From a candidate division FCPU426 bacterium (lineage in GTDB: Bacteria > Oederibacteriota > JAJYGY01 > DAIDJD01): 54,629 bases of DNA. Of this stretch, positions 6,462 to 50,045 are shown piece by piece (the stretch's first letter is position 1; each line of letters begins with the position of its first letter). A program made the position numbers and the translations under genes. Location of the stretch: positions 1 through 54,629 of the forward strand of contig DAIDJD010000013.1 of the NCBI GenBank assembly GCA_027451505.1. Reading direction: 5' to 3'. A model generated the notes under the pieces. It saw nothing but the letters and a program-made list of their open reading frames with translations, did no database searches and had not been told where the DNA came from.

Positions 6462-6470
6462 GCGTCCTCC

Positions 6471-11805: not shown

Positions 11806-12377
11806 GGCGCGGGCGCGGGGCGCTGGCGTCCGCGGTCCTGGGCGCCTGGGCCGCGCTGGGGGCGGCCCAGGCAGGGGCCGGGGCTCCGGCCGGCGGGGCG
11901 CCGCCGGCGCTGGCCCTGAGGGACCTCGCCGGCGCCGCGGCGAACCTGGACGCCGTGGCGGTGGGGGCGCCTTGCGCCCTGATCTGCGGCTTCAGCCGGG
12001 CGTCCTCGGACCCCTGCCAGCGCCTGGAGGACCTCCTCTGGTCCCGCTACCCGGCGGGCTCGGCCTGCCGCGTCGTCGCGGTCCTGGAGCTGCAGGAGGC
12101 CCCGGGCTTCGTGGTCCCCTTCATCCGCTCCGGGGTGCGCTCCAAGACCCCCCGGGAGCGCTGGGGACGGGTCCTGATCGATCGCGGGGGGGAGTCCGCG
12201 CTCAAGGCCTGGATCGGCTACGATCCCAAGGACCCGGACGACACCTACGCCGCCGTGCTGGACGCCCGTGGCCGGCCCCTGTGGCGCGGCCACGCCCGCG
12301 GGGCCCCCGCGCTCCTAGCGGCGATGCGCGGCCTTCCCCGCCCGGCTCAGTCCCCGAGCTCCCCGAATTTGCGGTAG
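11802..12377 (+). CDS. Hypothetical secreted protein (possible thioredoxin-like fold)
   Basis: The TTG at 11802 overlaps the upstream TGA (TTGA). Signal-like RRGRGALASAVLGAWAALGAAQA. GC-rich third positions throughout. The 3' end overlaps the convergent aquaporin gene by 31 nt. I recognise no family. Confidence 0.5.
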   Translation: MRRGRGALASAVLGAWAALGAAQAGAGAPAGGAPPALALRDLAGAAANLDAVAVGAPCALICGFSRASSDPCQRLEDLLWSRYPAGSACRVVAVLELQEAPGFVVPFIRSGVRSKTPRERWGRVLIDRGGESALKAWIGYDPKDPDDTYAAVLDARGRPLWRGHARGAPALLAAMRGLPRPAQSPSSPNLR

Positions 12378-13033
12378 GCGGCCGCGGCGCCGGCCGCCCC
12401 CGCCAGGGGCCCGATCAGGTAGATCCACAGGCCGCTCATTTCCCAGGACGCCAGCGCCGGTCCCAGCGAACGGGCCGGGTTCATGGAGGCCCCGCTGAGG
12501 GGCCCGGCCCAGAACACGCCCCCGGCCAGGGCCGCGGCGGTGCCCAGCGCCGCGTGCATGGCCGGCACCCCGGGCTCCGTGACCGCGAGGTACACCCAGG
12601 TCAGCCAAAACGTCAGCGCGGCCTCGAGCAGAAGGGCGGCCGCCGGGTTCATCTGGGTGGAGCTCACCCCCAGAAGGCTGCTGCGCAGCAGCACCCTCAG
12701 AAGGACCCCCGCGGCCAGGGCCCCGATGCACTGGGCCCCGGCGTAGGGCAGGGCCAGGGACTTGGGGATGCGCCCGGCCAGCGCCATGCCTAAGCTCACG
12801 GCGGGGTTGAAGTGCCCCTGGGACACCGGCCCGAAAACCAGCATCAGGGCCATCAGGGTCAACCCCGAAGCCAGCCCCGCCTGCGTCCAATTGACCACGC
12901 CCCCGAACGCCCCGAAGGACGAGCCGGCCCCGGCCGAGACCAGGACCAGGACGCAGGTGCCCAGGGCCTCCGCGGCCAGCGCCTTCAGCGGCGCCGCCTT
13001 GGGCCGCCACTCTTCCACGAGTTCCTCGCGCAT
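12347..13033 (-). CDS. MIP-family channel (aquaporin/glycerol-facilitator-like)
   Basis: 228 aa; ATG at 13033 with GGAGG 7 nt upstream. Two NPA boxes (HFNPAVS, SMNPARS) and a six-TM pattern. Confidence 0.9.
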   Translation of the reverse strand: MREELVEEWRPKAAPLKALAAEALGTCVLVLVSAGAGSSFGAFGGVVNWTQAGLASGLTLMALMLVFGPVSQGHFNPAVSLGMALAGRIPKSLALPYAGAQCIGALAAGVLLRVLLRSSLLGVSSTQMNPAAALLLEAALTFWLTWVYLAVTEPGVPAMHAALGTAAALAGGVFWAGPLSGASMNPARSLGPALASWEMSGLWIYLIGPLAGAAGAAAAYRKFGELGD

Positions 13034-13063: not shown

Positions 13064-13954
13064 TCAACTCAGCAGTTCGCCCTGCTCGGCCGTGCCCGAG
13101 GCCTGCAGGGACCAATTCAGGATGGCCTGGCGCAGGCGCGAGCCGGGCCGGTAGTCGGCCTCGAACCATTCGTGGGCCCGTCCCTGCTCCACGGCGTAGG
13201 CCCGGGCGCGGGCCTCCGAGGCCGCGTCCCCGGGCGCGTGCACCGCGAAGGAGGTCCCCCCGAATTGGCGCAGCAGCGCGAAGGCGGCCACGTCGCTGTA
13301 CCCGTCGCCGAGGTAGAGCATGCGGCTGAAGGGCACCCTCAGGTCCCCGGGCTTGAGCTTGGCGTTGACGTCCGGCCGGCTGGGCAGGTAGGAGCCCTTG
13401 CTGATGGCGAAGAGCTTCTGGGTCTTCGCGGTGAACCCCACCGTCTCCTTGGGGAAGGACAGCCGGGGCCCCAGGCCGTCGCCGGGGTCCTCCTCATCCA
13501 TGCGGCACGCGAAGACGGCCTTGAAGCGGTCGGCCAGGCCGCGGGACTCCAGGCAGCCCTCGATGAGGGGCTGGATGCCGCCGGAGACGATGAAGGCCTC
13601 CAACCGCCCGGGTCCCAGCCGCGCCTGGAGCGCGGTGAAAAGCCCGGGCCCCTCCGGCCCGTCCGTGAGGCCGGGATAGAGGCGCACGTCCGAACCCAAT
13701 GCGCGCAGGCGTTCCCGCCCCAAGCGGCGGGACGCGTCGGCCCGGCCCATGTCGGCGAGCAGGGCCAGGTAGCTGTGCTCCAGGTCGTAGGGGTCCGGGC
13801 CCGCCTGGAGCCGCGCGCAGTCGCCCCAGAAGCGCTCCGGCGGGACGCCCCAGCGCCGCAGCACCGGCTCGATCATGATCTCGGGGGACAGCGTCAGGTC
13901 GAAGTCGAAGACCAGCGCCAGGCGCCGCGGCTCCGGCGCCGGGGAGGCCCTCAC
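13064..13954 (-). CDS. HAD-superfamily hydrolase
   Basis: The GTG at 13954 overlaps the nadE stop (GTGA). Motif I is LVFDFDLTLS and motif IV is YLGDGYSDVAAF. The track ORF 13064-14353 is over-extended. Confidence 0.75.
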   Translation of the reverse strand: MRASPAPEPRRLALVFDFDLTLSPEIMIEPVLRRWGVPPERFWGDCARLQAGPDPYDLEHSYLALLADMGRADASRRLGRERLRALGSDVRLYPGLTDGPEGPGLFTALQARLGPGRLEAFIVSGGIQPLIEGCLESRGLADRFKAVFACRMDEEDPGDGLGPRLSFPKETVGFTAKTQKLFAISKGSYLPSRPDVNAKLKPGDLRVPFSRMLYLGDGYSDVAAFALLRQFGGTSFAVHAPGDAASEARARAYAVEQGRAHEWFEADYRPGSRLRQAILNWSLQASGTAEQGELLS

Positions 13955-15885
13955 GCCCCGGACCCCGGTCCGAAGCCGCCGTTGAGGACGGGCCAGCGGC
14001 ACCAGGTGCGCGGATCGACGCTGTGGTCGTCCAGGTGCAGGGACACCGCCAGGCGCTCGCGCTTCCACTGGGAGCCCGACCACAGCGCGTAGAAGGAGCG
14101 CGTCCACTCCGCGAGGTCGTCCCCGGGTTCGCCGGGGAAGTCGCCGCGCAGGGCCTCCAGCGCGCCCTCGGGGGGCAGGCGCCGGACCACGGCGGAGCGC
14201 TCCAGCGCGTCGAGCACCGCGTAGGGCATCAGGTCGTCCTCGTCGGTCTGGCGGTCCTCCAGGGGCCGCAGCTCGGCGGTGGGAGCCTGGTCGTTGACCG
14301 CCTTGAGGGCCGGGACCGGCCCCAACTCCCGCGGACCCCGCTCCTCCATCCACCGCAGCCAGCCCCTGAGGAAGTCCTTGCCCACCCCGGCCACCGGGGC
14401 CAGGCCGCCGCTGGTGTCACCGTCCATGGAGGTGTACCCCGTGGCCGCCTCGCTGCGGTTGTTCGTCGCCAGCAGAAGCCGGCCCTCGGCGTTGGCCAGG
14501 GTCCACACCGCGGGGGACCGCACCCGGGCCTGGAGGTTCTGCAGCGTGAGGTCGTCCTCGGGCCAGCCCAAGGGCCGCCCCAGGACGCCTTCGGCCAGGC
14601 TCCGGTAGGCGTCGACGAGGTGTTGCACCTCCACGGCGGCGTGGGCCGAGCCCACGGCGCGGGCCACCCCCTCGGCCGCGGACCGGGTCGTGGCCGAGGA
14701 GTGCGCCGTGGCTTGGTAGAGGGTGCGCAGCAGCACGGGCATGGCCGCGGCTTGGCCGCCGGCGGCCGCGATCCCGGGAACGTCCGGAAGCCGCGCGGCG
14801 AAGCCCTCGAAGCCGAGCTCGTCGACGGCGAAAGCGGCCATCAGCCGGACCAGCAGCGCGCAGGCGGCCGAGTCCGCGCCCCCGGAAAGGCTCAGGCAGA
14901 ACCCGCGGGCCCGGCTTTTGCGGAGGTAGTCGAAGATCCCCAGGGCCCCGGCCCGCGCGAAGTCCTCGCGCGGATCGGCAGCCTCGTGGGCGGCCGGGTC
15001 GCCCAGGGACGGCGGGGGGGGGGAGGCCGGCAGGGCCGGCGGGAAGGGGTCCCGCACCAGACCCGCACCCTCCACCGGGGCGGCGCGCCGGACTTCGACG
15101 TCGGCGCAGACCAGCCCCACGTCGCGGTAGCTGAAGCGCGCTCCGCGGGCCGCCACCGCCCCGTCCGGGTGGAGGAGGAAGGCGCCCCCGTCGTAGACCG
15201 CGCGCCCGCTTTCGTTGCCCATGAGGTTGGCGTAGGCGTAGGCCAAGCCGTGGTCCGCGGCCGCCCCGACCCCCAGGCCCAGACGGACCGCCTGCTTTCC
15301 CGGGGCGTAGTGGCTCGCCGCCGGGCCGAAGATGAGGTTGGCCCCGCGCCGGGCCAGGCGCGGGGCGGGCCTTTCCGGCCCGCCCCAGGCGTCCTCGCAG
15401 ATCTCGAAACCCAGCACGGCCCCGCCGCAGGCGAAGAGCAGGTCCCCCACGGGGACCTCGCGCCCCAGAACCTCCGCGCGCTCCACCCGGCCCGGCTCCC
15501 AGGCCCGGAACCAGCGCGGCTCGTAGTGGATGCCGTCCCGGGCCAGGCGCTGCTTGGGCACCAGGCCCAAAAGGCGGCCGTCCGCGCACACCGCGACCGT
15601 GTTGTAGAGCGCCCCCCCCAGCTCGAAGGGCAGCCCAAAGGCCGTGCACAGCCCCTGGGTGCGCCCCACCAGGACGCCCAGTTCGGCCAGGGCCCTCTCC
15701 CGCAGGAACGGGGCGAGGAAGAGGTCTTCGCAGCCGTAACCCGTGACGGCCAGTTCGGGAAGGCAGAGGTGGGAGACGCCCGCGGCCCGGGCGAGGTCGA
15801 GGGCCCGGGCGAGGTTCCCCCGGTTGGCGGCCCAGGCCAGCGGCGTCTGGTTCACGAACGCCGCGCCCAAGCGCACGGTGCTCAC
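13951..15885 (-). CDS. nadE: Glutamine-dependent NAD+ synthetase (CN-hydrolase domain + NAD synthetase domain)
   Basis: The GTG at 15885 overlaps the upstream stop (GTGA); 644 aa. The N-terminal nitrilase-like domain has LCLPELAVTGY and FEICEDAW. The C-terminal domain has the PP-loop LSLSGGADSA. The 1370-aa track ORF is an artefactual upstream extension. Confidence 0.9.
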   Translation of the reverse strand: MSTVRLGAAFVNQTPLAWAANRGNLARALDLARAAGVSHLCLPELAVTGYGCEDLFLAPFLRERALAELGVLVGRTQGLCTAFGLPFELGGALYNTVAVCADGRLLGLVPKQRLARDGIHYEPRWFRAWEPGRVERAEVLGREVPVGDLLFACGGAVLGFEICEDAWGGPERPAPRLARRGANLIFGPAASHYAPGKQAVRLGLGVGAAADHGLAYAYANLMGNESGRAVYDGGAFLLHPDGAVAARGARFSYRDVGLVCADVEVRRAAPVEGAGLVRDPFPPALPASPPPPSLGDPAAHEAADPREDFARAGALGIFDYLRKSRARGFCLSLSGGADSAACALLVRLMAAFAVDELGFEGFAARLPDVPGIAAAGGQAAAMPVLLRTLYQATAHSSATTRSAAEGVARAVGSAHAAVEVQHLVDAYRSLAEGVLGRPLGWPEDDLTLQNLQARVRSPAVWTLANAEGRLLLATNNRSEAATGYTSMDGDTSGGLAPVAGVGKDFLRGWLRWMEERGPRELGPVPALKAVNDQAPTAELRPLEDRQTDEDDLMPYAVLDALERSAVVRRLPPEGALEALRGDFPGEPGDDLAEWTRSFYALWSGSQWKRERLAVSLHLDDHSVDPRTWCRWPVLNGGFGPGSGA

Positions 15886-17324
15886 CCCAGCCCCACCAGG
15901 GAAAGGGAGGAGATGGTGTCCCCCATGCCCACCAGCGTCACCGGCTTGTCGATGAGGATGGTGGGCACCGCCACCACATGGAAGTCCGCGCAGGAGCCCA
16001 TGCCGGTCTCGGCCAGGGCGTCCAGCCCGTGGGCCGCGGCCAGGTGCGCGGCCAGGGCCTTCAACTCGGACAGGCTGTGCTCCGACACTTCGCGCCCGTG
16101 CGCCCACAGGAGGTTTTCGGCGCGGTCCAGGCTTCCGGTGCCGGCCTTGGCCGCCGCCACCGTGGCCGCGAAGGCCATGCCGTCGCGGTTGGCGCGGGGC
16201 TCGAACACCGGGCCCCGGGCGGCCTCGGCGGGCCGGATCAGGGTGATGTAAAGGCCGAACATGTGCAGTTGGACGCGCTTGAGCCCGAGCGCCTGGTAGA
16301 CCTTGAGGAGCCCCTTGAACAGGTTCACCGCGCCCAGGGACTGGCACTCGCGCGCCAGGGACTGCTCGCCCAGGACCTCGAGGATGCCGATGAGCTCCTG
16401 CTCGTTGCAGCCCACGCTGTCGGCGCGGGGGGCCAGGAAGCGGGCCAGCTCCTCGCGGATCTTCAGGTCCTGGGTGCTGGCGAACTCGAAATGGACCACC
16501 GCGCCGGGGTGGGCCTCCTTCCACCTTGAGACCCGGGCCCACGAGTCCGCGATGCGCGCCAGCCCGGAGCCGGGGGCGCCGCCCGTTAGCGGCTCGGTGA
16601 GCATCTGATAGCCGCTGAGCAGGATGAAGTCGAGGGGGTGCCCCGGCCGGGAAAGCGCCGCGTCGAAGGCGTCGTCCAGTTCCAGGCGGAAGTTGAGGGG
16701 GTCGTAGGTGGCGATGAAGCGGTTGCTCTTGGGGCAGGTGAGTTTCAGGCCGCCCAGCTCCAGCTCCGCGCCCTTGTCGAACTCGAGGATCCAATGGATG
16801 AGCGGGCGGTCGCCGGGCCTGTCCACGCCCCGGGCCGGGACCAGGGCCCCCGCGGAGTCCGTGCTGACCAAGCTGTCGTGGTCCAGGAAGAGGCCGGCCT
16901 GCTGGGCGGGCAGGCTGGCGCAGTGCACATAGACCCTGCGGGCGCCGGCCACGGCCAGGACATTGGCGATGATGCCCCCCTGGCCGCCCATCTGCAGGCG
17001 GTCGTAGCCCAGGCGTGCGGCCATCCAATCGAAAGTGGACTCGCGGGCCACCAGCCATTCCTGGGCCACGCCCTTGGAGAAGCACTCCACGAAGCCGCGC
17101 AGCAGGTCCACGGGTTCGTCGATGCGCCGGGCCCCCTTGTTGAGGACCTGCCATTCGTCCGCGCCCAGGTCGCCCATCCATTCCACCACCCGCCCCGGGG
17201 CCACCTTGAGCACGGCGTCGATGTTGGCGTTGAAGACGCTGGCCACCCCGGAGACGCGCCGGAAGCGCTCCAGGTGTCCGGGCACGTGGGCGTAATGTTC
17301 CTTCCAGGCGCGCTTGAGATCCAT
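15882..17324 (-). CDS. ADP-dependent sugar kinase (ADP-dependent glucokinase/phosphofructokinase family)
   Basis: 480 aa; ATG at 17324. Block-by-block match to Pyrococcus ADP-GK as I remember it: FNANIDAV, RLQMGGQGGIIANVL, VHFEFASTQDLKIREE...VGCNEQELIGILEVLGE, RVQLHMFGLYITL, and the C-terminal VGMGDTISSLSLVG. Confidence 0.85.
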   Translation of the reverse strand: MDLKRAWKEHYAHVPGHLERFRRVSGVASVFNANIDAVLKVAPGRVVEWMGDLGADEWQVLNKGARRIDEPVDLLRGFVECFSKGVAQEWLVARESTFDWMAARLGYDRLQMGGQGGIIANVLAVAGARRVYVHCASLPAQQAGLFLDHDSLVSTDSAGALVPARGVDRPGDRPLIHWILEFDKGAELELGGLKLTCPKSNRFIATYDPLNFRLELDDAFDAALSRPGHPLDFILLSGYQMLTEPLTGGAPGSGLARIADSWARVSRWKEAHPGAVVHFEFASTQDLKIREELARFLAPRADSVGCNEQELIGILEVLGEQSLARECQSLGAVNLFKGLLKVYQALGLKRVQLHMFGLYITLIRPAEAARGPVFEPRANRDGMAFAATVAAAKAGTGSLDRAENLLWAHGREVSEHSLSELKALAAHLAAAHGLDALAETGMGSCADFHVVAVPTILIDKPVTLVGMGDTISSLSLVGLG

Positions 17325-17357
17325 AGGGTCCCTTCGGCTGCGGGGAGGGCGACGGCA

Positions 17358-18317
17358 TCAAGCCGCGGCCCGCTCCAGGCGGTCGGAGATGGCCAAGCCC
17401 AGCCCGGCGGTGGGCACGGGCTCGGCCTCGATGAGGTCCAGGTCCCGGGCGTCCAGGCGGTGCAGGCACTCGAACAGACGCGCGGCGGCCTCGGCAAGGT
17501 CCCCGGAGGGGCTCAGGATCTCGACGGCGGCGTGCCCCGGGTGGGTCGGGGCGGCGCGGAAGGCCAGCAATCCCACGCGCCCGGGCGCCCCGGGTCCCCC
17601 TTGGGAGGGTCCCGGGAGCAGCCGCAGACGGGTGCGGGGGGCGTAATGGCTTTTGAGCTGCCCGGGGGCCAGGGGACGGTCCTGGGAACCGCCAACGGCC
17701 TCCAGGGGGTGCCCCAGCAGGGCCTCGAGGCGCTCGACCGGGAGGCCCCCCGGGCGCAGCAGGCGGGGTTGGGGCCCGCTGAGGTCCACGATGGTCGACT
17801 CCACGCCGACGGAGCAGGGGCCCCCGTCCAGGACGCAGGCCACCCTCTCCCCCAGGGAGGCCTCGACATGCTCGGCCCGGGTGGGGCTGAGCCCGCCGAA
17901 GCGGTTGGCGCTGGGCGCGGCCAGGGGCCGGTCCACGAGGCGGAGCAGGGCCCGGGCCACGGGATGGGCCGGGACGCGCACGGCCACCGTGTCGAGCCCG
18001 GCCGTGACGATGCCCGGAACCGCGCGGCGGCGCGGCAGGACCAGGGTCAGGGGCCCCGGCCAAAAGGCCTCGGCCAGCCGGAGGGCCAGGGCGTTGGGTT
18101 CGGCCGCGTCCCCGAGCCGGGACGCGTCGGCCAGGTGCACGATGAGGGGATCGAAGGCGGGGCGGCCCTTGATCTCGAAGACCTTGGCGCAGGCCAGCGG
18201 GTTGAAGGCGTCGGCGGCCAAGCCGTACACGGTCTCGGTGGGCATGGCCACCACCGAACCCTCTCGGATCAGGCGGGCGGCCCGTTCCAGGCCCGGCCCG
18301 TCCGGGGCCAGGATCAA
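17358..18317 (-). CDS. sua5: L-threonylcarbamoyladenylate synthase, long form (Sua5/YwlC: YrdC domain + Sua5 C-terminal domain)
   Basis: The TTG at 18317 overlaps the upstream TGA (TTGA). Motifs VAMPTETVYGLAADA, KGRPAFDPLIVH, WPGPLTLVL and APSANRFG. Confidence 0.85.
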   Translation of the reverse strand: MILAPDGPGLERAARLIREGSVVAMPTETVYGLAADAFNPLACAKVFEIKGRPAFDPLIVHLADASRLGDAAEPNALALRLAEAFWPGPLTLVLPRRRAVPGIVTAGLDTVAVRVPAHPVARALLRLVDRPLAAPSANRFGGLSPTRAEHVEASLGERVACVLDGGPCSVGVESTIVDLSGPQPRLLRPGGLPVERLEALLGHPLEAVGGSQDRPLAPGQLKSHYAPRTRLRLLPGPSQGGPGAPGRVGLLAFRAAPTHPGHAAVEILSPSGDLAEAAARLFECLHRLDARDLDLIEAEPVPTAGLGLAISDRLERAAA

Positions 18318-18865
18318 GCCCGCCGTCCGGCGAACCAGAGGCCGGCGTAGATCTTGGGATCCAGCAGGCGGCCCTCCCGGCGGCGGGCCTCCAGCCACTC
18401 GGCGATGCCCCGCATCGGCACGACGTGGACCGTGATGTCCTCGTCCGCGTCGCCGCCGCCGGGGCCCACCCGCTCGAGCCCGGTGGCCAGGAAAAGCGTC
18501 ATGAGGGAGGCGCTCGAGCCGGCCGCGTTGGGGCCCTCGGTGAGCGGTTCAAGGCGGGCGGCCCGGAAGCCCGTCTCCTCCTCGAGCTCGCGCCGGGCGG
18601 CGTCCTCGAGGCTCTCCCCGGCCTGGCTTTCCTTGTCGCCGACCAGCCCGGCGGGCAGCTCCACCACGGGCGCGGCGCAGGGAACCCGGAACTGCTCGAC
18701 CAGGACCAGCTCGCCGGCGTCCGTCACGGGCACGATGCCCACGATGCCGGTGGTGCCCGGGCGCTCCACGTACTCCCAGGTCCCCTGGCGCACCAGCCTG
18801 AGGAAGCTCCCGGAATACAGGATCTCCCTCGGCAGCGCCGCGGCGCCGCGGGGACCCTGCCTCAA
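18314..18865 (-). CDS. NUDIX hydrolase, ADP-ribose pyrophosphatase-like
   Basis: The TTG at 18865 overlaps the upstream TGA (TTGA). NUDIX box GLVGDKESQAGESLEDAARRELEEETG. The N-terminal ILYSGSFLRL is typical of the NudF type. Confidence 0.8.
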   Translation of the reverse strand: MRQGPRGAAALPREILYSGSFLRLVRQGTWEYVERPGTTGIVGIVPVTDAGELVLVEQFRVPCAAPVVELPAGLVGDKESQAGESLEDAARRELEEETGFRAARLEPLTEGPNAAGSSASLMTLFLATGLERVGPGGGDADEDITVHVVPMRGIAEWLEARRREGRLLDPKIYAGLWFAGRRA

Positions 18866-19272
18866 GACCGGGCCTTGCGGCGCTCGGCCCCCGTGGGGCT
18901 GCGGCCCTCGGCCCTGCGGCGGTCCCGGCTGTAGAGCACGTAGGCTCCCGAGCGGAACTGGTAGACGGCGTTCTGGTCGGGGTCCCAGAACAGGCCGCCC
19001 TGGATGAGGCGCATGCGCCCGGTCTCGGCCTGCGCCGGGGTCATGCGCTGGGTGCGCCGGCGGTCGTGGCGCACGAAGACGTACTGGCTGCCGACGCGCC
19101 GCAGGATCTCGCGGGTCTGGGGGTCGAAATAGTATCCCACCTTGAGCTTGATCAGGCGGGACAGGCGCGCCCGCTCCTCCTCCAGGAGGGCGGCGCGGCG
19201 GCCCTTGAGTTGTTCGGCCAAGTCGCCGGAGGCCCGGTCCAAGTCCCTGCGGATGCTGAACAGGTCTGCCAT
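18862..19272 (-). CDS. Hypothetical protein with an internal duplication
   Basis: ATG at 19272 with GAGGTGG upstream (the track TTG at 19302 is less likely). Two related ~30-aa segments: GYYFDPQTREILRRVGSQYVFVRHDRRR and GLFWDPDQNAVYQFRSGAYVLYSRDRRR. It is the first gene of the NUDIX-sua5-kinase-nadE operon. Confidence 0.55.
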   Translation of the reverse strand: MADLFSIRRDLDRASGDLAEQLKGRRAALLEEERARLSRLIKLKVGYYFDPQTREILRRVGSQYVFVRHDRRRTQRMTPAQAETGRMRLIQGGLFWDPDQNAVYQFRSGAYVLYSRDRRRAEGRSPTGAERRKARS

Positions 19273-19368
19273 CGCCACCTCGCTGCGCGCGGGCCCCGAC
19301 AAGGGGTCCGAACCTCAAGTGTATGCAAAAGGCGGCGCCGCGTCGAGTTCACCGGCCGGCCCCGGCGC

Positions 19369-20643
19369 TCAGGCCCCCGCGCCCCAGCGGATGAGGGCCG
19401 CGGCGGCCCCCCCCGCCCCGGGGTCGGCGCGTACCCGCTGCGCCAGGGCCGCGGCGCCCTCGACGACGGGTTCGCCCAGCGCCGCGGCCACGGCCCGAGC
19501 CAGGGACCCCGGCCCCAGGCGCCGGGCCGGCAGCACCACCCCGGCCCCGGCGGCCCGCACCCGGCGCGCCCAGAACGGCTGGTCGGCGAACACCGGGCAC
19601 ACGACCTGGGGCAGCCCGGAGGCGGAGGCCGCGTGGGTCGTGCCGGCCCCGCCGTGGTGCACCACGGCGCAGCAGCGCTCGAAGAGCCATTCGTGGGAGC
19701 AGTCCTGCGCCACGGCCACGCCCTCGGGAAGGTCGCAGTCGGGCCCCTCCAGGTTGGTCCAACCCGCGCCCAGGACCACGCGCAGGTCCAGCGCTTCGGC
19801 CAGGTCCCCGGCGAGCTCCAGGAGCGCGGAGTCCGCGAACACGGGCATGGAGCCGAAGCCCAGGTACACCGGCGGGGGCCCGTCCTCGAGCCAGGCCGCG
19901 AAGCCCGGGTCCCCATGGTCCCCCTCGATCGCCAGGGCGTCTTCGGCCGACAGGCGCCAGGCGCCGGTGAGCGGGTCGCGCTCCGGGTCCCAGTCGGCGG
20001 GTTTAGGGAACAGGGCCGGGCTGTAGGCGTGGAGGGTGCGGGCGCCGGAACGCAGGGCCGCGGCGACCGGGGATCCCGAAGGGACCGGGACGCCCAGGAC
20101 CCGGGCCAGCTCGGCGCAGGCGGCGCGCTGGAGCAGCCACCAGGCGCGGCGTTCCCAGGCGTGGCTGGGGCCGTTGAAGGGGCCCAGGTTCCCGCCGCCC
20201 AAGGCGATGGAGGCGTAGCTCCGTGAGGGCGTGAAGGGCAGCAGTTCGCCGTAGACCACGGGCTTGCCCAAGACCCGGCCCAGCAGCGTGACGGCCTCGT
20301 CCGTGGTGGTGGCGCTCACGAGCACGTCGGCGCCTTCGGCGGCGGCGGCCCAGGCCCGGGCGACGCCCTCCCCGCGCTCCAGGAAGCCCTCCCGAAGCCT
20401 GCGGAAAAATCCCAGGGTGCGGCCCCGAAGCAGGCGCGAGCGCAGCAGCGGATCCGACTCGAGGGCGCTGCGGGTGTCCCAAGGCAGGGGGACCAGGTCC
20501 GGTCCGGCTTGCCCCAGGATGGAACCGAAATTCGAGGGCGCGCTGACGGTGACGGATTGCCCGCGGGCGGCGAGGGCGCGCGCCAGGGCGGCATAGGGCT
20601 GGACGTCGCCCCGGGAACCGAGGGTGAAGAGGGCGAAACGCAG
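19369..20643 (-). CDS. GT1-family (MGT/UDP-glycosyltransferase-like) glycosyltransferase
   Basis: N-terminal RFALFTLGSRGDVQPY and C-terminal VVHHGGAGTTHAASASGLPQVVCPVFADQPFWA are signature GT1 blocks. No ATG, GTG or TTG lies between the lpd stop and this conserved N-terminus, so a CTG at 20643 is proposed. The start is uncertain. Confidence 0.75.
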   Translation of the reverse strand: MRFALFTLGSRGDVQPYAALARALAARGQSVTVSAPSNFGSILGQAGPDLVPLPWDTRSALESDPLLRSRLLRGRTLGFFRRLREGFLERGEGVARAWAAAAEGADVLVSATTTDEAVTLLGRVLGKPVVYGELLPFTPSRSYASIALGGGNLGPFNGPSHAWERRAWWLLQRAACAELARVLGVPVPSGSPVAAALRSGARTLHAYSPALFPKPADWDPERDPLTGAWRLSAEDALAIEGDHGDPGFAAWLEDGPPPVYLGFGSMPVFADSALLELAGDLAEALDLRVVLGAGWTNLEGPDCDLPEGVAVAQDCSHEWLFERCCAVVHHGGAGTTHAASASGLPQVVCPVFADQPFWARRVRAAGAGVVLPARRLGPGSLARAVAAALGEPVVEGAAALAQRVRADPGAGGAAAALIRWGAGA

Positions 20644-20678
20644 GGAACCGTCCCCTTTCGCGGAGCGGCGGCCGGCCG

Positions 20679-22529
20679 CTACTTTCTCTTGGGCCTGAAG
20701 ATGTCGGTGGCGTGTCCGAGGTGGACGTCGACGGCGCCCAGCAGGGTCTCGTTGAGCGTGGGGTGGGGATGCACGGTCAGGCTGACGTCCTCGGCCAGGG
20801 CGCCCATCTCCACGGCCAGGGCGTATTCGCTGATGAGTGCGCCGGCCTCCCAGCCCACGGCCCCGGCCCCCAGGATGCGCCCGGTGGCCTTCTCCACGAT
20901 GACCTTGCTCAGGCCCTCGGTGCGGCCCAAGGCGTGGGCCTTGCCGTTGGCGGCCCAGGGGTAGCGGCCGATCCCGACGTCGAGGCCCTTCTGCTTGGCC
21001 TCCTCCTCGGTGACGCCCACCCACGCCAGCTCCGGGTCCGTGAAGACCACCGCGGGCATGGCCCGCACATCGTAGACGGTGCGGCGGCCGGCGATGGCCT
21101 CGACCGCCACGCGGGCCTCGGCGTGGGCTTTGTGCGCGAGCATGGGCTCGCCGGCGATGTCCCCGATCACGAAGATGGAGGGCTCCGCCGTGCGCATCTG
21201 GGCGTCGTGTTCGATGAAGCCCTTGGCGTCGACCCGCACCCGGGTGCGGTCCAGGCCCAGGGAATCCGAGACCGGCCGGCGGCCCACCGACACCAGCACC
21301 CGGTCGAAGACCTGGACCGGCTCCACGCCCTCCCCGGAGAGGGTCGCCGTGACGCCCCCCGGGCCGGGTTCGAGCTTCTCGACCTTGGTGTTGAGGTGGA
21401 TGGCCTTGAACTGCCCGCGCAGGTGGGCCTCCAACGGGCGCACCAGATCCCGGTCGGCGGCCATGAGCAGGCCGGGCATGAATTCGACGACCGTGACCTC
21501 GGAGCCCAGGGCCGCGTAGACGCAGGCCATCTCCAGGCCTATGTACCCGCCGCCCACGGCCAGCAGGCGCTTCGGCACGTCCCGGAGCTCCAGGGCCCCG
21601 GTGGAATCCATGATGCGCGGGTCGCCCAGGGCCTTCCAGGGCCCGGGCATGGCCGGGACGCTGCCCGTGGCGATGACGCAAAAGTCGAAGGCCACTTCGG
21701 TCCGCGCCGGGGCCTTGCCGCCCTCCCCGGGGGACACGGACAGGGTGTGCGCATCCTTGAAGCGCGCCTCCCCCTCGATGACCTCGACCTTGCGGGCCGC
21801 CGCCACCTGGGCGATGCCGGTCCCCAGGGTGCCGACGAACCCGTCCTTGTGGGCGCGCAGTCGGTCCAGGTCGATCTTGGGCGCGCCGAAGTCCACCCCG
21901 ATGGAGGGCGCGTGGCGCGCCTCGTTGATGAGCTTGGCGACGTGCAGCAGGCCCTTGCTGGGGATGCAGCCGCGCAGGGTGCACACGCCGCCCAGGCGCG
22001 TCTCCTTGTTGATCAAGGTGACCCGGAACCCGAGGTCCGCGGCGTAGAAGGCCGCCGCGTAGCCGCCCGGTCCGGCGCCGATGACGGCCACGCGCAGCTT
22101 GGAGGCCTCCTCAGGGCTGAGCCCGGCGTGGCCGTGGCCCGGGACGGGGGCCTCCTGGGTGGGCGCGGGAGCCGCCGCGATCGGAGCCGCCGCCGCCGGT
22201 GCCGGGGGCGCCGGAGAGGGCGCCGGTGCGGGGGAGGGAACGGGCGCGGAGGCCGCCGGCGCTGGGATGGCCTTCGGAGCCGCCGGGGCTTCGGCCGCGT
22301 CGGGCTCGTAGGACACGATGGGCTGGCCCGGCCGGACCTTGTCCCCGGGCTTGATGTGGACCACGGACACGCGCCCGGAAAAGTTCGCGGCCACGTCCAT
22401 CACGGCCTTGTTGGTCTCGATCTCGGCCAAGCTCTGGCCCTTGGAGACGGCCTCTCCCGCCTTCACCGAGACGCCGACCACCTCGCCGGAGTCCACCCCC
22501 TCGCCCAGGTTCGGTAGCTTGAAGTCCAT
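20679..22529 (-). CDS. lpdA: Dihydrolipoyl dehydrogenase (E3) with an N-terminal lipoyl domain
   Basis: 616 aa. Lipoyl domain (LAEIETNKAVMDV), an Ala/Pro linker, then the E3 core (VIGAGPGGYAAAF, GGVCTLRGCIPSK, C-terminal HPHPTLNE). Confidence 0.92.
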   Translation of the reverse strand: MDFKLPNLGEGVDSGEVVGVSVKAGEAVSKGQSLAEIETNKAVMDVAANFSGRVSVVHIKPGDKVRPGQPIVSYEPDAAEAPAAPKAIPAPAASAPVPSPAPAPSPAPPAPAAAAPIAAAPAPTQEAPVPGHGHAGLSPEEASKLRVAVIGAGPGGYAAAFYAADLGFRVTLINKETRLGGVCTLRGCIPSKGLLHVAKLINEARHAPSIGVDFGAPKIDLDRLRAHKDGFVGTLGTGIAQVAAARKVEVIEGEARFKDAHTLSVSPGEGGKAPARTEVAFDFCVIATGSVPAMPGPWKALGDPRIMDSTGALELRDVPKRLLAVGGGYIGLEMACVYAALGSEVTVVEFMPGLLMAADRDLVRPLEAHLRGQFKAIHLNTKVEKLEPGPGGVTATLSGEGVEPVQVFDRVLVSVGRRPVSDSLGLDRTRVRVDAKGFIEHDAQMRTAEPSIFVIGDIAGEPMLAHKAHAEARVAVEAIAGRRTVYDVRAMPAVVFTDPELAWVGVTEEEAKQKGLDVGIGRYPWAANGKAHALGRTEGLSKVIVEKATGRILGAGAVGWEAGALISEYALAVEMGALAEDVSLTVHPHPTLNETLLGAVDVHLGHATDIFRPKRK

Positions 22530-22532
22530 GGC

Positions 22533-23834
22533 TCAGTTCACCAGTTCGAACGGGTTGCCCAGCACCTCGCAGACGCGCTTCAGGAAGCGCGCCCCGTCGG
22601 CGCCGTCGATCACGCGGTGGTCGTAGCTCAACGAGAGCCCCAGCATCAAGCGCGCCTCGATCTTGCCGTCGACCATCTGCAGCTCCTCGCGCGCGCGGGA
22701 GATCCCCAGGATGGCCACCTCGGGCCAGTTGACGATGGGGGTGAAGAAGGTCCCCCCTATGCCGCCGAGGTTGCTGATGGTGAAGACCCCGCCCTGCATC
22801 TCCTCCAGGGAGATGCGGCGGCTGCGCACCTTCTCCGCGAGGCCCTCGAGGTCCCGGGCCAGCTCGACGATGCCCTTCTTGTCGGCGTCCCTCAGCACGG
22901 GGACCATCAGCCCGGACGGGCTGTCCACGGCGATTCCGATGTGGCGCCACGGCTTGGTGACGATCTCCCCGCGGGCCATGTCGACCGAGCTGGCGAAATG
23001 GGGGAACTCGTCCAGGACCCTGGTGACCGCCTTCACCGCCAGCACGGTCATGGTCACCTTGCCCGGCTGCCCCTTGCGGCCGTCGCTGAAGCGTTTGCGG
23101 GCCGATTCGGTGCCGGTGATGTCGGCCAGGTCGAATTGGGTGACCCTGGGGGACTGGGCCCAGGCCCTGGCCATGCCCTCGGCGGTGGCCCGGCGCACGC
23201 CCTTGAGCGGGCTGCGCTCGACGGCACCCCACTTCGAGAAGTCCGGCAGGGGGGGCGGAGCGGCCGACCCGGCCGCGGGACCCGCGGCGAGGGCCCGCTT
23301 GACGTGGGCCTTCACGTCGGCCTCCAGCACCCGCCCCTGGGGGCCCGAAGCCGCCACCAGGCTTAAGTCCACCCCCAGTTCGCGGGCGAATTTGCGCACC
23401 GCGGGCGAAGCGGGCACGACCCGCCCCGGGGCGGCCTCGGAAGCCGCGACCGGACGGGGCGGGTCCGGGGGAAGCGGCGCCGCGGCTGGGGGGCCGGCCG
23501 GCGCGGGGGCCGGTCGCGGAGCCCGCTCCGGGGGCGCCGCCGGCGCGGAAGCAGGGACAGGGGCGGGAGCCGGGGAGGAAGCCGGGGCCGCTCCGGAGGC
23601 GGGCTCGTAGGCCACCACGACCTGCCCGGGGCGCACCTTGTCGCCCGGCTTCACGGGCACGGACGTGATCACGCCGTCCTCGGGGGCGGGGACGTCCATG
23701 ACGGCCTTGTTGGTCTCCACCTCGAGCATGCCCTGCCCCTTGGCGACACGGTCCCCGGGCTTGACCGAAACCCCGACCACGTCCCCGGAATCGACGCCTT
23801 CGCCCAGGGCGGGCAGTTTGAATTCCTTGGCCAT
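22533..23834 (-). CDS. aceF: Dihydrolipoamide acetyltransferase (E2)
   Basis: 433 aa. One lipoyl domain (MLEVETNKAVMDV), an E3-binding domain (ASPAVRKFARELGVDLSLVAASGPQGRV) and a catalytic domain with SLSYDHRVIDGADGARFL. Confidence 0.92.
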   Translation of the reverse strand: MAKEFKLPALGEGVDSGDVVGVSVKPGDRVAKGQGMLEVETNKAVMDVPAPEDGVITSVPVKPGDKVRPGQVVVAYEPASGAAPASSPAPAPVPASAPAAPPERAPRPAPAPAGPPAAAPLPPDPPRPVAASEAAPGRVVPASPAVRKFARELGVDLSLVAASGPQGRVLEADVKAHVKRALAAGPAAGSAAPPPLPDFSKWGAVERSPLKGVRRATAEGMARAWAQSPRVTQFDLADITGTESARKRFSDGRKGQPGKVTMTVLAVKAVTRVLDEFPHFASSVDMARGEIVTKPWRHIGIAVDSPSGLMVPVLRDADKKGIVELARDLEGLAEKVRSRRISLEEMQGGVFTISNLGGIGGTFFTPIVNWPEVAILGISRAREELQMVDGKIEARLMLGLSLSYDHRVIDGADGARFLKRVCEVLGNPFELVN

Positions 23835-23843
23835 GCTCTGCTC

Positions 23844-26528
23844 CTAGTCCTTCAACGGGCTTTTGCGCGGCTCGGCCAGCCCCAGCTCGCGCACCGCGCC
23901 GGCGACCTCGGCGGCGTCCACCTTTCCGCGGCGCTGGAGGGCGCGCAGGGCCTCCAGGACGATGTTCTCGGCGTCCACCTCGAAGAAGCGGCGCAGCTCC
24001 TCGCGGCCCTCGCTGCGGCCGAAACCGTCGGTGCCCAGGGCCGTGAAGTCGCGGATCCAGGGCTTCACCTGCTCGGCCACCAGCCGCACGTAGTCGCTGC
24101 TGGCCACCACGGGGTGCTCCAGGCCCTGCGCCACCTGGTGCAGGTAGCTGGAGCGGGGCGCCTCCCCTGGGTGCAGCCGGTTCCAGCGCTCGGCCTCGAG
24201 GGCCTCCCAGCGCAGGGTCTTGTAGCTGGTGGCGGACCAGACGTCGGACCCGATGCCGTACTTCTCGGCCAGGATCGCGGAGGCCCGCAGGGCCTCGCGG
24301 AAGATGGAGCCGGACCCGAAGAGGTGGACCCTCCCCCGTTCCTTGCCCTTGGCCTGGACCGTGGCGTAACGGTAGAGGCCCCGGCGTATCCCCTCCTCGC
24401 AGCCCTCGGGCTTGGCCGGATGCTCGTAGTTCTCGTTGCACAGGGTCAGGTAGTAGAAGATCTGCTCGTCCTCGGCGTACATGCGCCGCAGGCCGTCCTG
24501 GAGGATGACGGCGATCTCGTAGAGGTAGGCCGGGTCGTAGGCCACCAGGTTCGGCACGGCCGAGGCGGCCAAGTGGCTGTGGCCGTCCTCGTGCTGGAGC
24601 CCCTCGCCGTTGAGCGTGGTCCGGCCGGCCGTCCCGCCGAGCAGGAAGCCCTTCACGCGGCTGTCGGCGGCCTGCCAGATCTGGTCCCCCACCCGCTGGA
24701 AGCCGAACATCGAGTAGTAGATGTAGAACGGGATGGTGTTGACGCCGTAGACGCTGTAGGCGGTCCCCGCCGCCAGGAAGCTGGCCATGGCCCCGGCCTC
24801 GTTGATGCCCTCCTGCAGGATTTGGCCGTTGCGGGCCTCGCGGTAGTAGGCCACGTTGTCGGCGTCCACGGGGTCGTAGAGCTGGCCCTGGCTGGCGTAG
24901 ATCCCGATCTGGGAGAAGAGCGGGTCGAGTCCGAAGGTGCGGGCCTCGTCCGGGATGATGGGCACGATGAGCTTGCCGATGTCCCGGTTCTTCAGCAGTT
25001 TGGCCAGGACCATGTTGAAGGCCATCGTGGTGCTGACCGCACGGCCCTTGGACCCGGAGAAGAACTCCGCGAACTCCTCCAGCGCCGGCGTCTTGAGGCG
25101 CCCCGCCATGGGAAGGCGCTGCGGCACGGGGCCGCCCAAGGCCTCGCGGCGCGCGCGCAGGTACCGCATTTCGGGGCTGTCCTCGGCGGGCTTGTAGAAG
25201 GGCAGGATGGCCACCTGCTCGTCGGACAGGGGGATCGAGAAGCGGGTGCGGAATTCCTTGAGCTGCTCCTCGTTGAGCTTCTTGCTGTTGTGGGCCACGT
25301 TGCGCCCCTCGCCGGCCTCGCCGAGGCCGTACCCCTTGATGGTCTTGGCCAGGATGACCGTGGGGCGGCCGGTCTCGGCCGCGGCCGCGGCGTAAGCGGC
25401 GTAGACCTTCTCCGGGTCGTGGCCGCCCCGCTTGATCTTGTGGATCTGCTCATCGGAGAGGTGCTCGACGAGCTTGCGCAGCTTGGGGCTGTTGAAGAAA
25501 TGCTCCCGCACCTCGGCGCCCTTGGCCACGGTGTACTTCTGGTACTGCCCGTCGACCACCTCGCCCATGCGCGCCACCAGCTCGCCGTCGTCGGCCGCCA
25601 GGATGGGGTCCCATTCGCCGCCCCAGATCACCTTGATCACGTTCCAACCGGCGCCGCGGAAGATGCGCTCGAGCTCCTGGATGATCTTCCCGTTGCCCCG
25701 CACCGGGCCGTCCAGGCGCTGCAGGTTGCAGTTGACCACCCACACCAAGTTGTCGAGGCGCTCGCGGACCGCGAGGTTGATCGCCCCCAAGGTCTCGGGC
25801 TCGTCGCTCTCGCCGTCGCCCACGAAGCTCCACACCTTCTCGCCGCCGGGCTGCTTGAGGCCCCGGTGCTCGAGGTAGCGCATGAAACGCGCCTGGTAGA
25901 TGCTGGAGATGGGGCCCAGCCCCATGCTCACCGTGGGGAACTGCCAGAATTCCGGCATGAGCCAAGGGTGCGGGTAGCTGCTCAGGCCCGGCGTCGCCTT
26001 GAGCTCGCGCCGGAAGTTGACGAGATGCTCCTCACCGAGGCGCCCCTCCAGGAAGGCGCGCGCGTAGATGCCGGGGGCGGCGTGCCCCTGGTAGTAGACG
26101 ATGTCCCCGGCGAAGCCCTTGGCGCGGTCCGGAGCCCTGAAGAAATGGTTGAATCCGATCTCGTAGAGGGTCGCCGAGCTGGCGAAGGTGCCGATGTGCC
26201 CGCCCGGAGCCGCGGGCTCGTGGTTCGCCCGGACGACCATCGCCATGGCGTTCCAGCGCACCGCGTTCTTGATGCGGCGCTCGAGCTCGCGGTCGCCCGG
26301 GAACGCGGTCTGCTTCTCCAGCGGGATGGTGTTGATGTAGGGGGTGTTGGCCGTGAAGGGCATGTGGATGCCCTCCTTGAAGGCCCGTTCCTGGAGATAG
26401 GCCAGGATGAGCCCGGCCCTCTCGGCGCCATAGCGCGCCTTGAGGTCGGCCAACGAATCGACCCATTCGCTGATCTCCTGCTGGTCCACGGAGGGGTCTT
26501 CGCTCAGCGTCCGAAGTATCTCGCCCAT
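23844..26528 (-). CDS. aceE: Pyruvate dehydrogenase E1 component, homodimeric type
   Basis: ATG at 26528 with GAGGAA upstream; 894 aa. Colinear with AceE-type E1 (GGHIGTFASSATLYEIGFNHFF, GDGESDEPE...). The track start at 26756 is over-extended. Confidence 0.92.
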   Translation of the reverse strand: MGEILRTLSEDPSVDQQEISEWVDSLADLKARYGAERAGLILAYLQERAFKEGIHMPFTANTPYINTIPLEKQTAFPGDRELERRIKNAVRWNAMAMVVRANHEPAAPGGHIGTFASSATLYEIGFNHFFRAPDRAKGFAGDIVYYQGHAAPGIYARAFLEGRLGEEHLVNFRRELKATPGLSSYPHPWLMPEFWQFPTVSMGLGPISSIYQARFMRYLEHRGLKQPGGEKVWSFVGDGESDEPETLGAINLAVRERLDNLVWVVNCNLQRLDGPVRGNGKIIQELERIFRGAGWNVIKVIWGGEWDPILAADDGELVARMGEVVDGQYQKYTVAKGAEVREHFFNSPKLRKLVEHLSDEQIHKIKRGGHDPEKVYAAYAAAAAETGRPTVILAKTIKGYGLGEAGEGRNVAHNSKKLNEEQLKEFRTRFSIPLSDEQVAILPFYKPAEDSPEMRYLRARREALGGPVPQRLPMAGRLKTPALEEFAEFFSGSKGRAVSTTMAFNMVLAKLLKNRDIGKLIVPIIPDEARTFGLDPLFSQIGIYASQGQLYDPVDADNVAYYREARNGQILQEGINEAGAMASFLAAGTAYSVYGVNTIPFYIYYSMFGFQRVGDQIWQAADSRVKGFLLGGTAGRTTLNGEGLQHEDGHSHLAASAVPNLVAYDPAYLYEIAVILQDGLRRMYAEDEQIFYYLTLCNENYEHPAKPEGCEEGIRRGLYRYATVQAKGKERGRVHLFGSGSIFREALRASAILAEKYGIGSDVWSATSYKTLRWEALEAERWNRLHPGEAPRSSYLHQVAQGLEHPVVASSDYVRLVAEQVKPWIRDFTALGTDGFGRSEGREELRRFFEVDAENIVLEALRALQRRGKVDAAEVAGAVRELGLAEPRKSPLKD

Positions 26529-26662
26529 GATTCCTCGCCGTCGCGGGACAGATGCCGCCTTCCCGGGAGGCCGCGGGCGGCTCCGGGAGTCCCAAAAGAA
26601 CATCATTTCAAGGATTTTTCGTCGCACCGGGCGGTCTCGGACCGGGCCCGGTGCAGCCCCAA

Positions 26663-26691
26663 ATTGTACCTTACCAGGGGGCCCTTGACCA
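26663..26691 (-). promoter_or_regulatory. Candidate sigma-70 promoter for aceE (TGGTCA-17 nt-TACAAT)
   Basis: Read on the minus strand. It sits ~135 nt upstream of the aceE ATG and just downstream of the preceding terminator. This is a hexamer match only. Confidence 0.35.
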
Positions 26692-26709
26692 CCCCCGTAG
26701 GCCCCCCAC

Positions 26710-26740
26710 AAAAAAACGGGGTCCCCCTTGGGGGACCCCG
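26710..26740 (-). terminator. Rho-independent terminator of the SpoVG-like gene
   Basis: On the minus strand, CGGGGTCCCCC-aa-GGGGGACCCCG is followed directly by T7. Confidence 0.8.
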
Positions 26741-26790
26741 CATGTCTGAACACCACCCATGGGGTCAGTACTCGTAGATTTTCGGATTCT

Positions 26791-31625: not shown

Positions 31626-31658
31626 GCCCGCCCCCAGGATCGGACCGCGGACCCGGCC

Positions 31659-32792: not shown

Positions 32793-33035
32793 CGGGACCT
32801 TGCCGACGAAAAGGGGGCCCGGAAGCTTGCCCGGAACAGGGGGGAGGTATAGGTTGGATGGGTCGCGGGAACTGGGGCCGGCGGAAGGTGGTCGTCCCCA
32901 GATTGCGCGAGCCGGGCCGGTTCCGCCAACCCCTCCCACCCGGCGGAGCCGGTCCGGTACCAATCGAGTTCCGTTGAATGGTACGGAATCCAAATTCGTC
33001 CATTCCTCGCTCTTTGATACCGCCTATTAAAATTC

Positions 33036-34340: not shown

Positions 34341-34346
34341 AGGCGC

Positions 34347-36358: not shown

Positions 36359-36393
36359 GCGGGGATCGCGGGCCTCCAGGTCGGCGTCGCGGC

Positions 36394-38406: not shown

Positions 38407-38418
38407 CGGGCCCCCGTT

Positions 38419-49958: not shown

Positions 49959-50045
49959 GGAAGGGTGGCCGAGCGGTTTAAGGCAGCAGACTTGAAATCT
50001 GCCGTGGGGGCGACCCCACCGTGAGTTCGAATCTCACCCCTTCCG
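49959..50045 (+). tRNA. tRNA-Ser (anticodon UGA)
   Basis: The 7-bp acceptor stem GGAAGGG/CCCTTCC, anticodon loop CUUGAAA, long variable arm and T-arm GTGAG-TTCGAAT-CTCAC were all folded by eye. Very similar to E. coli tRNA-Ser(UGA). CCA is not encoded. Confidence 0.9.

Follow-up and report, generated by a model that had tools for sequence, protein, structure and literature searches.

A probable ADP-dependent glucokinase of a widespread bacterial clade, encoded in a lineage-specific gene array

We analyzed a stretch of 54,629 nucleotides from a candidate division FCPU426 bacterium (contig DAIDJD010000013.1, referred to at its full length as the window), which has a G+C content of about 72% and carries a gene for a sugar kinase of the type that depends on adenosine diphosphate (ADP). 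The gene lies within a same-strand array that runs in the order aceE, E2, lpd, GT1, hyp146, NUDIX, sua5, ADP-GK (the kinase gene), nadE, HAD and MIP, the members of which are described individually below. The kinase gene, whose start is preceded by a Shine-Dalgarno-like motif, GAAGGGA, located 6 nucleotides upstream, is as follows:

15882..17324, minus strand: ADP-dependent sugar kinase with a glucokinase-type residue signature (ATG start, 480 amino acids)

Judging from its sequence, we consider it likely that this kinase is a bacterial ADP-dependent glucokinase (EC 2.7.1.147 type). Such an enzyme would phosphorylate glucose with the beta-phosphate of ADP, yielding glucose-6-phosphate and adenosine monophosphate (AMP), and free intracellular glucose would thereby be fed into central carbon metabolism. 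It should be considered that ADP-dependent glucokinases (GKs) and phosphofructokinases (PFKs) have a wider distribution among archaeal species (PMC12525153).

Both its sequence and its predicted fold make the kinase a member of the archaeal/eukaryotic-type ADP-dependent sugar kinase family, as an earlier note on this DNA had proposed from the letters alone. The Pfam search that the note had suggested as a check returned a full-length match to ADP_PFK_GK (PF04587), with kinase residues 27-477 corresponding to profile positions 3-429 of 430, at an E-value of 1.3e-67 and 228.8 bits versus a gathering cut-off of 27. The two motifs named in the note are both in place, the first as FNANID (N32, N34 and D36) and the second as VGMGDTISS (G466, G468 and D469), and between them lie the other family motifs, namely G113, G114 and Q115; R202; H278 and E280; and N307 and E310. 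The roles of these motifs in ADP-dependent kinases, i.e. NxNxD, GG(Q), the catalytic Arg (R206 of AncMsPFK, a reconstructed ancestral Methanosarcinales ADP-PFK), HxE, NxxE and GxGD, have been described (PMC7948494, PMC6028617). In 20 bacterial homologues, NxNxD, GGQ, Arg, HxE, NxxE and GxGD are all invariant. When the kinase was searched against the sequences of the PDB, only ADP-GKs, ADP-PFKs and reconstructed ancestors were matched, with strong matches ranging from 1.9e-59 for AncMsPFK (6C8Z), through 8.7e-46 for the Thermococcus litoralis GK and 4.3e-38 for the Pyrococcus horikoshii PFK, to 9.1e-35 (9e-35 when rounded) for the bifunctional PFK/GK of Methanocaldococcus jannaschii. Mouse ADPGK is much more distant (E-value 4.7e-5, 25.5 bits).

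The predicted structure agrees with this placement. An AlphaFold2 model of the kinase, built on 20 homologues, has a mean predicted local distance difference test score (pLDDT) of 89.6 and a predicted template modelling score (pTM) of 0.89. In a Foldseek comparison, the target-normalised template modelling score (TMt) was 0.85-0.86 against the GKs of Pyrococcus furiosus (PfGK), P. horikoshii (PhGK) and T. litoralis (TlGK), 0.65 against mouse ADPGK and no higher than 0.56 against ATP-dependent adenosine kinases, guanosine kinases and ribokinases. An assignment of the kinase to the ATP-dependent PfkB family is ruled out by the PF04587 match together with these low TMt values. A separate question is whether the bacterial clade to which the kinase belongs has switched its donor to ATP, another nucleoside diphosphate or polyphosphate. 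We hold this to be highly improbable, as the nucleotide- and Mg-related motifs (R202, HxE, NxxE and GxGD) are all conserved and the fold is far nearer to the ADP-dependent than to the ATP-dependent members of the ribokinase superfamily. We infer ADP to be the donor from family membership and the conserved nucleotide-site motifs only.

The choice between glucose and a phosphosugar can be addressed through residues whose contribution has been established experimentally. Munoz et al. determined an ADP-dependent kinase's structure with fructose-6-phosphate (F6P) bound and mutated its active site (PMC7948494). According to that study, N32, D36 and R206 are conserved family-wide, glucokinases and bifunctional enzymes alike retain E90, and K179, N181 and R212 are conserved only in PFKs and bifunctional enzymes, with specific glucokinases presenting His at the N181 position (PMC7948494). 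K179 touches the phosphate of F6P; the K179A substitution raised the Michaelis constant (KM) for F6P by about 1000-fold, and alanine at K179, N181 and R212 raised it by 200- to 1000-fold (PMC7948494). We took the equivalent residues of the kinase from pairwise alignments and from an alignment of 136 sequences:

E89 of the kinase: equivalent of E90 in AncMsPFK
L175 of the kinase: equivalent of K179 in AncMsPFK
H177 of the kinase: equivalent of N181 in AncMsPFK
R202 of the kinase: equivalent of R206 in AncMsPFK
D208 of the kinase: equivalent of R212 in AncMsPFK
Q240 of the kinase: equivalent of Q244 in AncMsPFK

The comparison with the specificity residues of ADP-GK, ADP-PFK and bifunctional enzymes, also suggested in the earlier note, thus places the kinase with TlGK, to which it is identical at all 19 functional sites (NND-E-GGQ-L-H-R-D-Q-HE-NE-GGD). 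At the three specificity positions, which are occupied by K, N and R in AncMsPFK and AncMT, the kinase has L175, H177 and D208. It therefore presents the residue pattern of the glucokinase subtype (EC 2.7.1.147), i.e. the E90 equivalent, His at the N181 position and neither Lys nor Arg at the K179 and R212 positions. All of the glucose-contact residues (in AncMsPFK numbering, D36, E90, G114, G115, Q116, the His at 181, Q244 and the catalytic Asp) are kept. Among the 20 bacterial homologues, which share 48-76% identity, the specificity and catalytic residues are invariant or nearly so. The pocket is predicted from these residues to lack a sugar-phosphate site and gives no sign of having been remodelled for pentoses. 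Because the residues match the glucose-type TlGK and those binding F6P are missing, glucose, rather than a ribose-derived sugar, is the predicted substrate. The suggestion in the earlier note of a role other than classical modified glycolysis, possibly with a ribose-derived substrate, is thus not supported by the glucose-contact and GK-specificity residues, which are those of TlGK, or by the missing phosphosugar residues.

The family nonetheless offers other readings, and the database scores need to be considered here. The kinase might be an ADP-dependent PFK or a bifunctional PFK/GK, as in Methanosarcinales and Methanococcales, given that the ancestral Methanosarcinales ADP-PFK matches it best in the PDB (204.8 bits) and that its top match in NCBIfam is TIGR02045, the ADP-PFK model. 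The latter match, however, reaches only 202.4 bits versus a cut-off of 408.1, the kinase has L175, H177 and D208 in place of the K179, N181 and R212 that accompany EC 2.7.1.146, and in the distance tree described below it falls outside the clade that carries K, N and R. A PFK or bifunctional activity is, in our view, scarcely probable. Somewhat more room, although we still regard it as unlikely, should be left for an ADP-dependent hexose kinase acting on another sugar, such as mannose, glucosamine or fructose, or for a broad hexokinase. The clade is far from every assayed enzyme and forms a separate, well-supported branch, and position 240 varies (Q, H or N) in related clusters; against this, every residue reported to contact glucose is kept in the kinase.

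Several of our results weigh against the glucokinase assignment and should be kept in mind when referring to it. The best-scoring solved structure is the PFK ancestor mentioned above rather than a GK. The NCBIfam equivalog models for archaeal ADP-GK, NF010641 and NF010642, score the kinase at 179.8 and 197.8 bits versus cut-offs of 554 and 387, and its identity to the characterised archaeal glucokinases is only 27-29%. Our literature search, with subscription journals outside its coverage, turned up no paper in which a bacterial member is characterised. Finally, the persistence of nadE next to the kinase gene while the upstream genes change (see below) could reflect selection for co-expression. 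The kinase is thus outside the NF010641 and NF010642 archaeal orthologue groups and belongs, by sequence, to a separate clade in which the residue signature is the same.

A side observation from the same alignment concerns a well-separated subgroup of PF04587 with a third signature, in which NxNxD is replaced by H-[VT]-D, the glucose Glu by Gln and GGQ by GGT, together with Ala-x-His and an Asn at position 208. This subgroup (P0139, P0141, P0146, P0147, P0157, P0159, P0160, P0164, P0181, P0200, P0212 and P0217) fits neither the GK nor the PFK pattern, which suggests a different substrate.

The clade to which the kinase belongs is monophyletic and strongly conserved, and it occurs in many bacterial phyla. 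A word-indexed search returned at least 989 homologues. The best 120 all seem to be of bacterial or metagenomic origin, and NCBI or JGI annotation already gives many homologues the name "ADP-dependent glucokinase/phosphofructokinase". When one genome for each GTDB species was scanned with two exact peptides, an approach whose count is a lower bound for the clade, at least 349 loci encoding relatives of the kinase were found. The best 80 of these loci, every one of them bacterial, represent about nine phyla, among them candidate division FCPU426, Planctomycetota, Bacteroidota, Ignavibacteriota, Fibrobacterota, Spirochaetota and Myxococcota, as well as Alphaproteobacteria and Bacteriovoracaceae, with cultured Marinifilaceae (Ancylomarina, Labilibaculum and Marinifilum) among the carriers. 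An exhaustive search with representatives at 50% identity gave 609 clusters family-wide, about a dozen of which belong to the clade of the window. The closest relatives of the kinase are found in unclassified high-GC metagenome-assembled genomes (MAGs) and in FCPU426 MAGs. The statement of the earlier note that the family is uncommon in bacteria is, accordingly, only roughly right. The note would also have given up its proposal had bacterial homologues proved both common and characterised; they are numerous and annotated, but we found none that had been characterised biochemically.

In a neighbour-joining tree, the clade including the window kinase was recovered in 199 of 200 bootstraps. The distance tree places it amid sequences with the glucokinase signature and away from the K-N-R clade, in which AncMsPFK and AncMT are found. 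The nearest outgroup contains a Candidatus Heimdallarchaeota protein, making an archaeal, Asgard-like origin of the bacterial clade plausible from the sequences; however, as this sister relation was recovered in just 61 of 200 bootstraps, the phylogeny that the earlier note had called for with regard to transfer from archaea does not fix the donor.

Compared with known systems, the kinase resembles the Thermococcales ADP-GKs (T. litoralis 4B8R/1GC5, P. furiosus 1UA4 and P. horikoshii 1L2L/5O0I) in Pfam family and two-domain fold, and it shares with the T. litoralis enzyme the GK-specific Glu and His and the lack of the F6P-binding Lys and Arg. It differs from them in its low identity, in scoring below the equivalog cut-offs and in belonging to a bacterial clade. 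Unlike their hyperthermophilic archaeal hosts, its host is an uncultured high-GC bacterium that is probably a mesophile. With AncMsPFK (6C8Z/6XIO, a Methanosarcinales ADP-PFK/GK) it has NxNxD, E90, GGQ, R206, HxE and GxGD in common, but AncMsPFK carries DxxE, where the kinase has NxxE, along with K179, N181 and R212 in place of L, H and D, and the two are placed in separate regions of the tree. Asgard (Heimdallarchaeota) and eukaryotic ADPGKs share the glucokinase-type signature (E, H and D) at an identity of only about 30-35%. The annotated bacterial proteins of Ancylomarina longa, Labilibaculum, Marinifilum, Melioribacteraceae and gut Alphaproteobacteria MAGs are of the same clade and length, with the same invariant residues, at 47-55% identity, yet they are encoded without NadE, NUDIX or Sua5 nearby.

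This last difference bears on the genomic context, from which the earlier note had drawn its picture of an NAD/ADP-ribose operon. The genes that surround the kinase gene are listed below from the head of the array to its last gene:

20679..26756, minus strand: head of the array, formed by genes of the pyruvate dehydrogenase complex
23844-26756, minus strand: aceE, start uncertain (TIGR00759, 1348 bits versus a cut-off of 860)
22533-23834, minus strand: E2, with E2 domains present
20679-22529, minus strand: lpd with an N-terminal lipoyl domain (TIGR01350, 451 versus 409)
19369..20670, minus strand: GT1-family glycosyltransferase (EryCIII/MGT/Rgt-like), start approximate (Pfam EryCIII-like_C, UDPGT and Glyco_transf_28)
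18862..19302, minus strand: hyp146, a 146-amino-acid protein with no Pfam or NCBIfam match, which accompanies the NUDIX gene in related contigs
18314..18865, minus strand: NUDIX hydrolase of the ADP-ribose/ADP-sugar pyrophosphatase type (Pfam NUDIX, E 1.5e-12)
17358..18317, minus strand: Sua5/TsaC threonylcarbamoyl-AMP synthase (Sua5_yciO_yrdC and Sua5_C; TIGR00057, 185 bits versus a cut-off of 123)
13951..15885, minus strand: glutamine-dependent NAD+ synthetase NadE, GTG start (CN_hydrolase and NAD_synthase; TIGR00552 above cut-off)
13064..13954, minus strand: HAD-like hydrolase of unassigned specificity, GTG start (Pfam HAD, E 2.9e-5, below cut-off)
12347..13033, minus strand: MIP-family channel (aquaporin-like), last gene of the array (Pfam MIP, E 1.2e-38)

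The unit order given in the earlier note (hypothetical protein, NUDIX, Sua5, kinase, NadE, HAD and possibly the aquaporin) holds, with domain and structure matches in agreement, if weakly so for HAD, and the array extends farther upstream than that unit, with aceE, E2, lpd and GT1 on the same strand. The junctions likewise read as had been described: 4-nucleotide overlaps join hyp146 to NUDIX (TTGA), NUDIX to Sua5 (TTGA), the kinase to NadE (GTGA) and NadE to HAD (GTGA), and a 33-nucleotide gap separates Sua5 from the kinase. Between HAD and MIP there is a short gap, which contains a GGGAGGA motif. At the overlaps, the start codons are TTG or GTG rather than ATG, as judged from the overlapping sequence itself and from how the genes are called in relatives. 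For Sua5, we took the TTG that overlaps the NUDIX stop, with a GTG at 18398 as the alternative. The kinase is probably translationally coupled to nadE.

A terminator-like hairpin (26741-26716, minus strand; 11 pairs, nine of them G-C, followed by a T-run) lies just upstream of aceE and is directly followed by a promoter-like site (26691-26663, minus strand), the sole one in a 15-kb scan. As both are inside the mechanically listed aceE open reading frame (ORF), the true aceE start is probably downstream of 26663. No convincing terminator was seen within the array before the end of MIP, although a simple consensus-pattern scan of DNA with 72% GC provides weak evidence. Among the neighbours, the best PDB matches of the NUDIX protein are ADP-ribose pyrophosphatases (3.5e-13 to 1e-8), its NCBIfam matches (NudE, YffH and ADPRase) all being sub-threshold, and neither the HAD-like protein nor hyp146 has a match in the PDB or NCBIfam, so that they contribute nothing to the functional picture. 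The GT1 glycosyltransferase resembles enzymes that inactivate macrolides and rifamycin (NCBIfam Rgt, MGT and OleI, sub-threshold) and is placed between lpd and the hyp146-NUDIX pair, a position kept in three related loci (L002, L004 and L006).

To what extent this neighbourhood is conserved was examined with tblastn searches of the seven neighbours of the window against 80 species-representative loci, each with a flank of up to 8 kb. NUDIX, hyp146 and NadE were found near the kinase in only 3/80 loci, L002 (75% identity), L004 (66%) and L006 (64%), with the hyp146 homologue upstream of NUDIX in all three, and Sua5, HAD and MIP were found only in L002. Among the loci checked, HAD is near the kinase only in L001 and L002. 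In four more metagenome contigs, NadE is directly downstream of the kinase in L082 (70%), L083 (71%) and the P0036 contig (66%) and is missing in L084 (58%); in L082 and L083, an unannotated ORF of a size similar to hyp146 precedes NUDIX. With metagenome contigs included, the kinase-nadE pair is present in 7/12 loci with an identity of at least 58% and in 0/73 with 55% or less. Besides the window, NadE lies directly downstream of the kinase in six related contigs, in one of them with an intervening 123-amino-acid ORF, while the upstream partner changes among these loci (Sua5 with a 165-amino-acid ORF, Band_7, Pirin or TPR).

Beyond this lineage, all ORFs within 6 kb of the kinase were clustered all-against-all across loci, which revealed no partner common to different phyla, only antisense shadow ORFs and lineage-specific neighbours. 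The kinase is found near TsaD, Nth, XerD and AroK in gut Alphaproteobacteria, near peroxiredoxin, OsmC, citrate lyase and ClpB in Marinifilaceae, and next to unrelated Pfam families in nine other lineages (HEPN, porin, OmpA, HI0933-like, Nfu, UbiA, BirA, HtpG and carboxylesterase). No neighbourhood is conserved across phyla and only lineage-specific housekeeping genes surround the kinase, which is consistent with a stand-alone enzyme of central metabolism.

These data allow the operon proposal to be weighed, according to which the kinase belongs to a functional NAD/ADP-ribose unit and phosphorylates a ribose-derived or other non-glucose intermediate with ADP. The tight spacing of the genes with 4-nucleotide overlaps from the kinase through nadE to HAD, the NUDIX protein of the ADP-ribose pyrophosphatase type and the retention of the kinase-nadE pair despite varying upstream genes are all consistent with such a unit. 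Set against them are a sugar pocket that is residue for residue that of a glucose-specific ADP-GK, the rarity of the partners (NUDIX, Sua5 and HAD missing near the kinase in 76/80 species-representative loci, NadE in all 73 at 55% identity or less) and the absence of the context even in relatives at 58-69% identity (L003, L005, L007, L008 and L084, all of which lack the kinase-nadE pair). Moreover, we know of no link between Sua5 and NAD or ADP-ribose metabolism. We consider this proposal very unlikely. What stands of it is the tight same-strand array, while the functional unit does not, NUDIX and hyp146 being confined to the lineage of the window and NadE being absent from all of the more distant loci. 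The array is, rather, synteny that a single uncultured lineage, high in GC and near candidate division FCPU426, has inherited, and not a dedicated NAD/ADP-ribose pathway. The nadE adjacency alone is persistent enough to be kept as a low-probability hint of co-expression.

That hint enters one further reading, which we regard as quite unlikely: that the clade is a distinct ADP-dependent hexokinase from Asgard-like archaea, spread in anaerobic or low-energy bacteria, with a real regulatory or metabolic link to NadE in the FCPU426-like lineage. Were the link real, it might serve to coordinate AMP-forming reactions or to match NAD supply to glycolytic entry. Returning to the glucokinase assignment, we infer ADP as the donor, glucose as the main substrate and a housekeeping glycolytic role of the kinase.

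Some observations on the neighbourhood stand apart from this argument. In gut Alphaproteobacteria (L034, L040, L049, L055 and others), tsaD, which encodes the transferase for threonylcarbamoyladenosine (t6A), is found on the strand opposite to the kinase, about 1-2.5 kb upstream, and in the window the kinase adjoins sua5/tsaC, which encodes the first enzyme of the same t6A pathway. We judged a link between the kinase and t6A to be coincidence, as TsaD is on the opposite strand and its placement is specific to the alphaproteobacterial clade. On the contig of the closest relative (L001), a VapB/PIN toxin-antitoxin pair and a tyrosine recombinase (16719-17328 and 17404-18396) follow shortly after MIP; they are absent from the window and possibly mark a synteny break or an integration point. 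A gene for an HI0933-like flavoprotein lies at 1102-2283 (minus strand), about 14 kb from the kinase, and in an FCPU426 bog MAG (L008) a gene of this type (6419-7627, minus strand) is the next one upstream of the kinase, encoded on the other strand, an arrangement that is probably a coincidence.

Elsewhere in the window, the region 30414-42061 (minus strand) encodes GT4/GT1-type glycosyltransferases and an amine-oxidase-like flavoprotein. Next come three membrane proteins in a row, Leu/Ala-rich and apparently polytopic, of 404-670 amino acids and with no Pfam match, and after them a TPR-like protein. The AT skew of the region is unusually strong, at up to 0.42, and the region looks like a cell-envelope glycosylation or polysaccharide cluster. 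An Rfam search over the whole window revealed no riboswitch and only a tRNA, the sole RNA gene detected:

49959-50045, plus strand: tRNA-Ser (anticodon TGA)

For this window, the gain from our analysis is small, as existing annotation describes the kinase correctly and the new function proposed for it is not supported. ADP-dependent glucokinases are familiar from textbooks as enzymes of hyperthermophilic archaea and of animals, and the presence of the clade in culturable carriers makes it an easy biochemical target. Metabolic reconstructions that seek only Glk, ROK or phosphotransferase system (PTS) enzymes could overlook the glucose entry step in organisms that carry it. With the clade found in many mesophilic bacterial phyla, ATP-independent activation of glucose may be a normal option in bacterial fermenters and in low-energy habitats.

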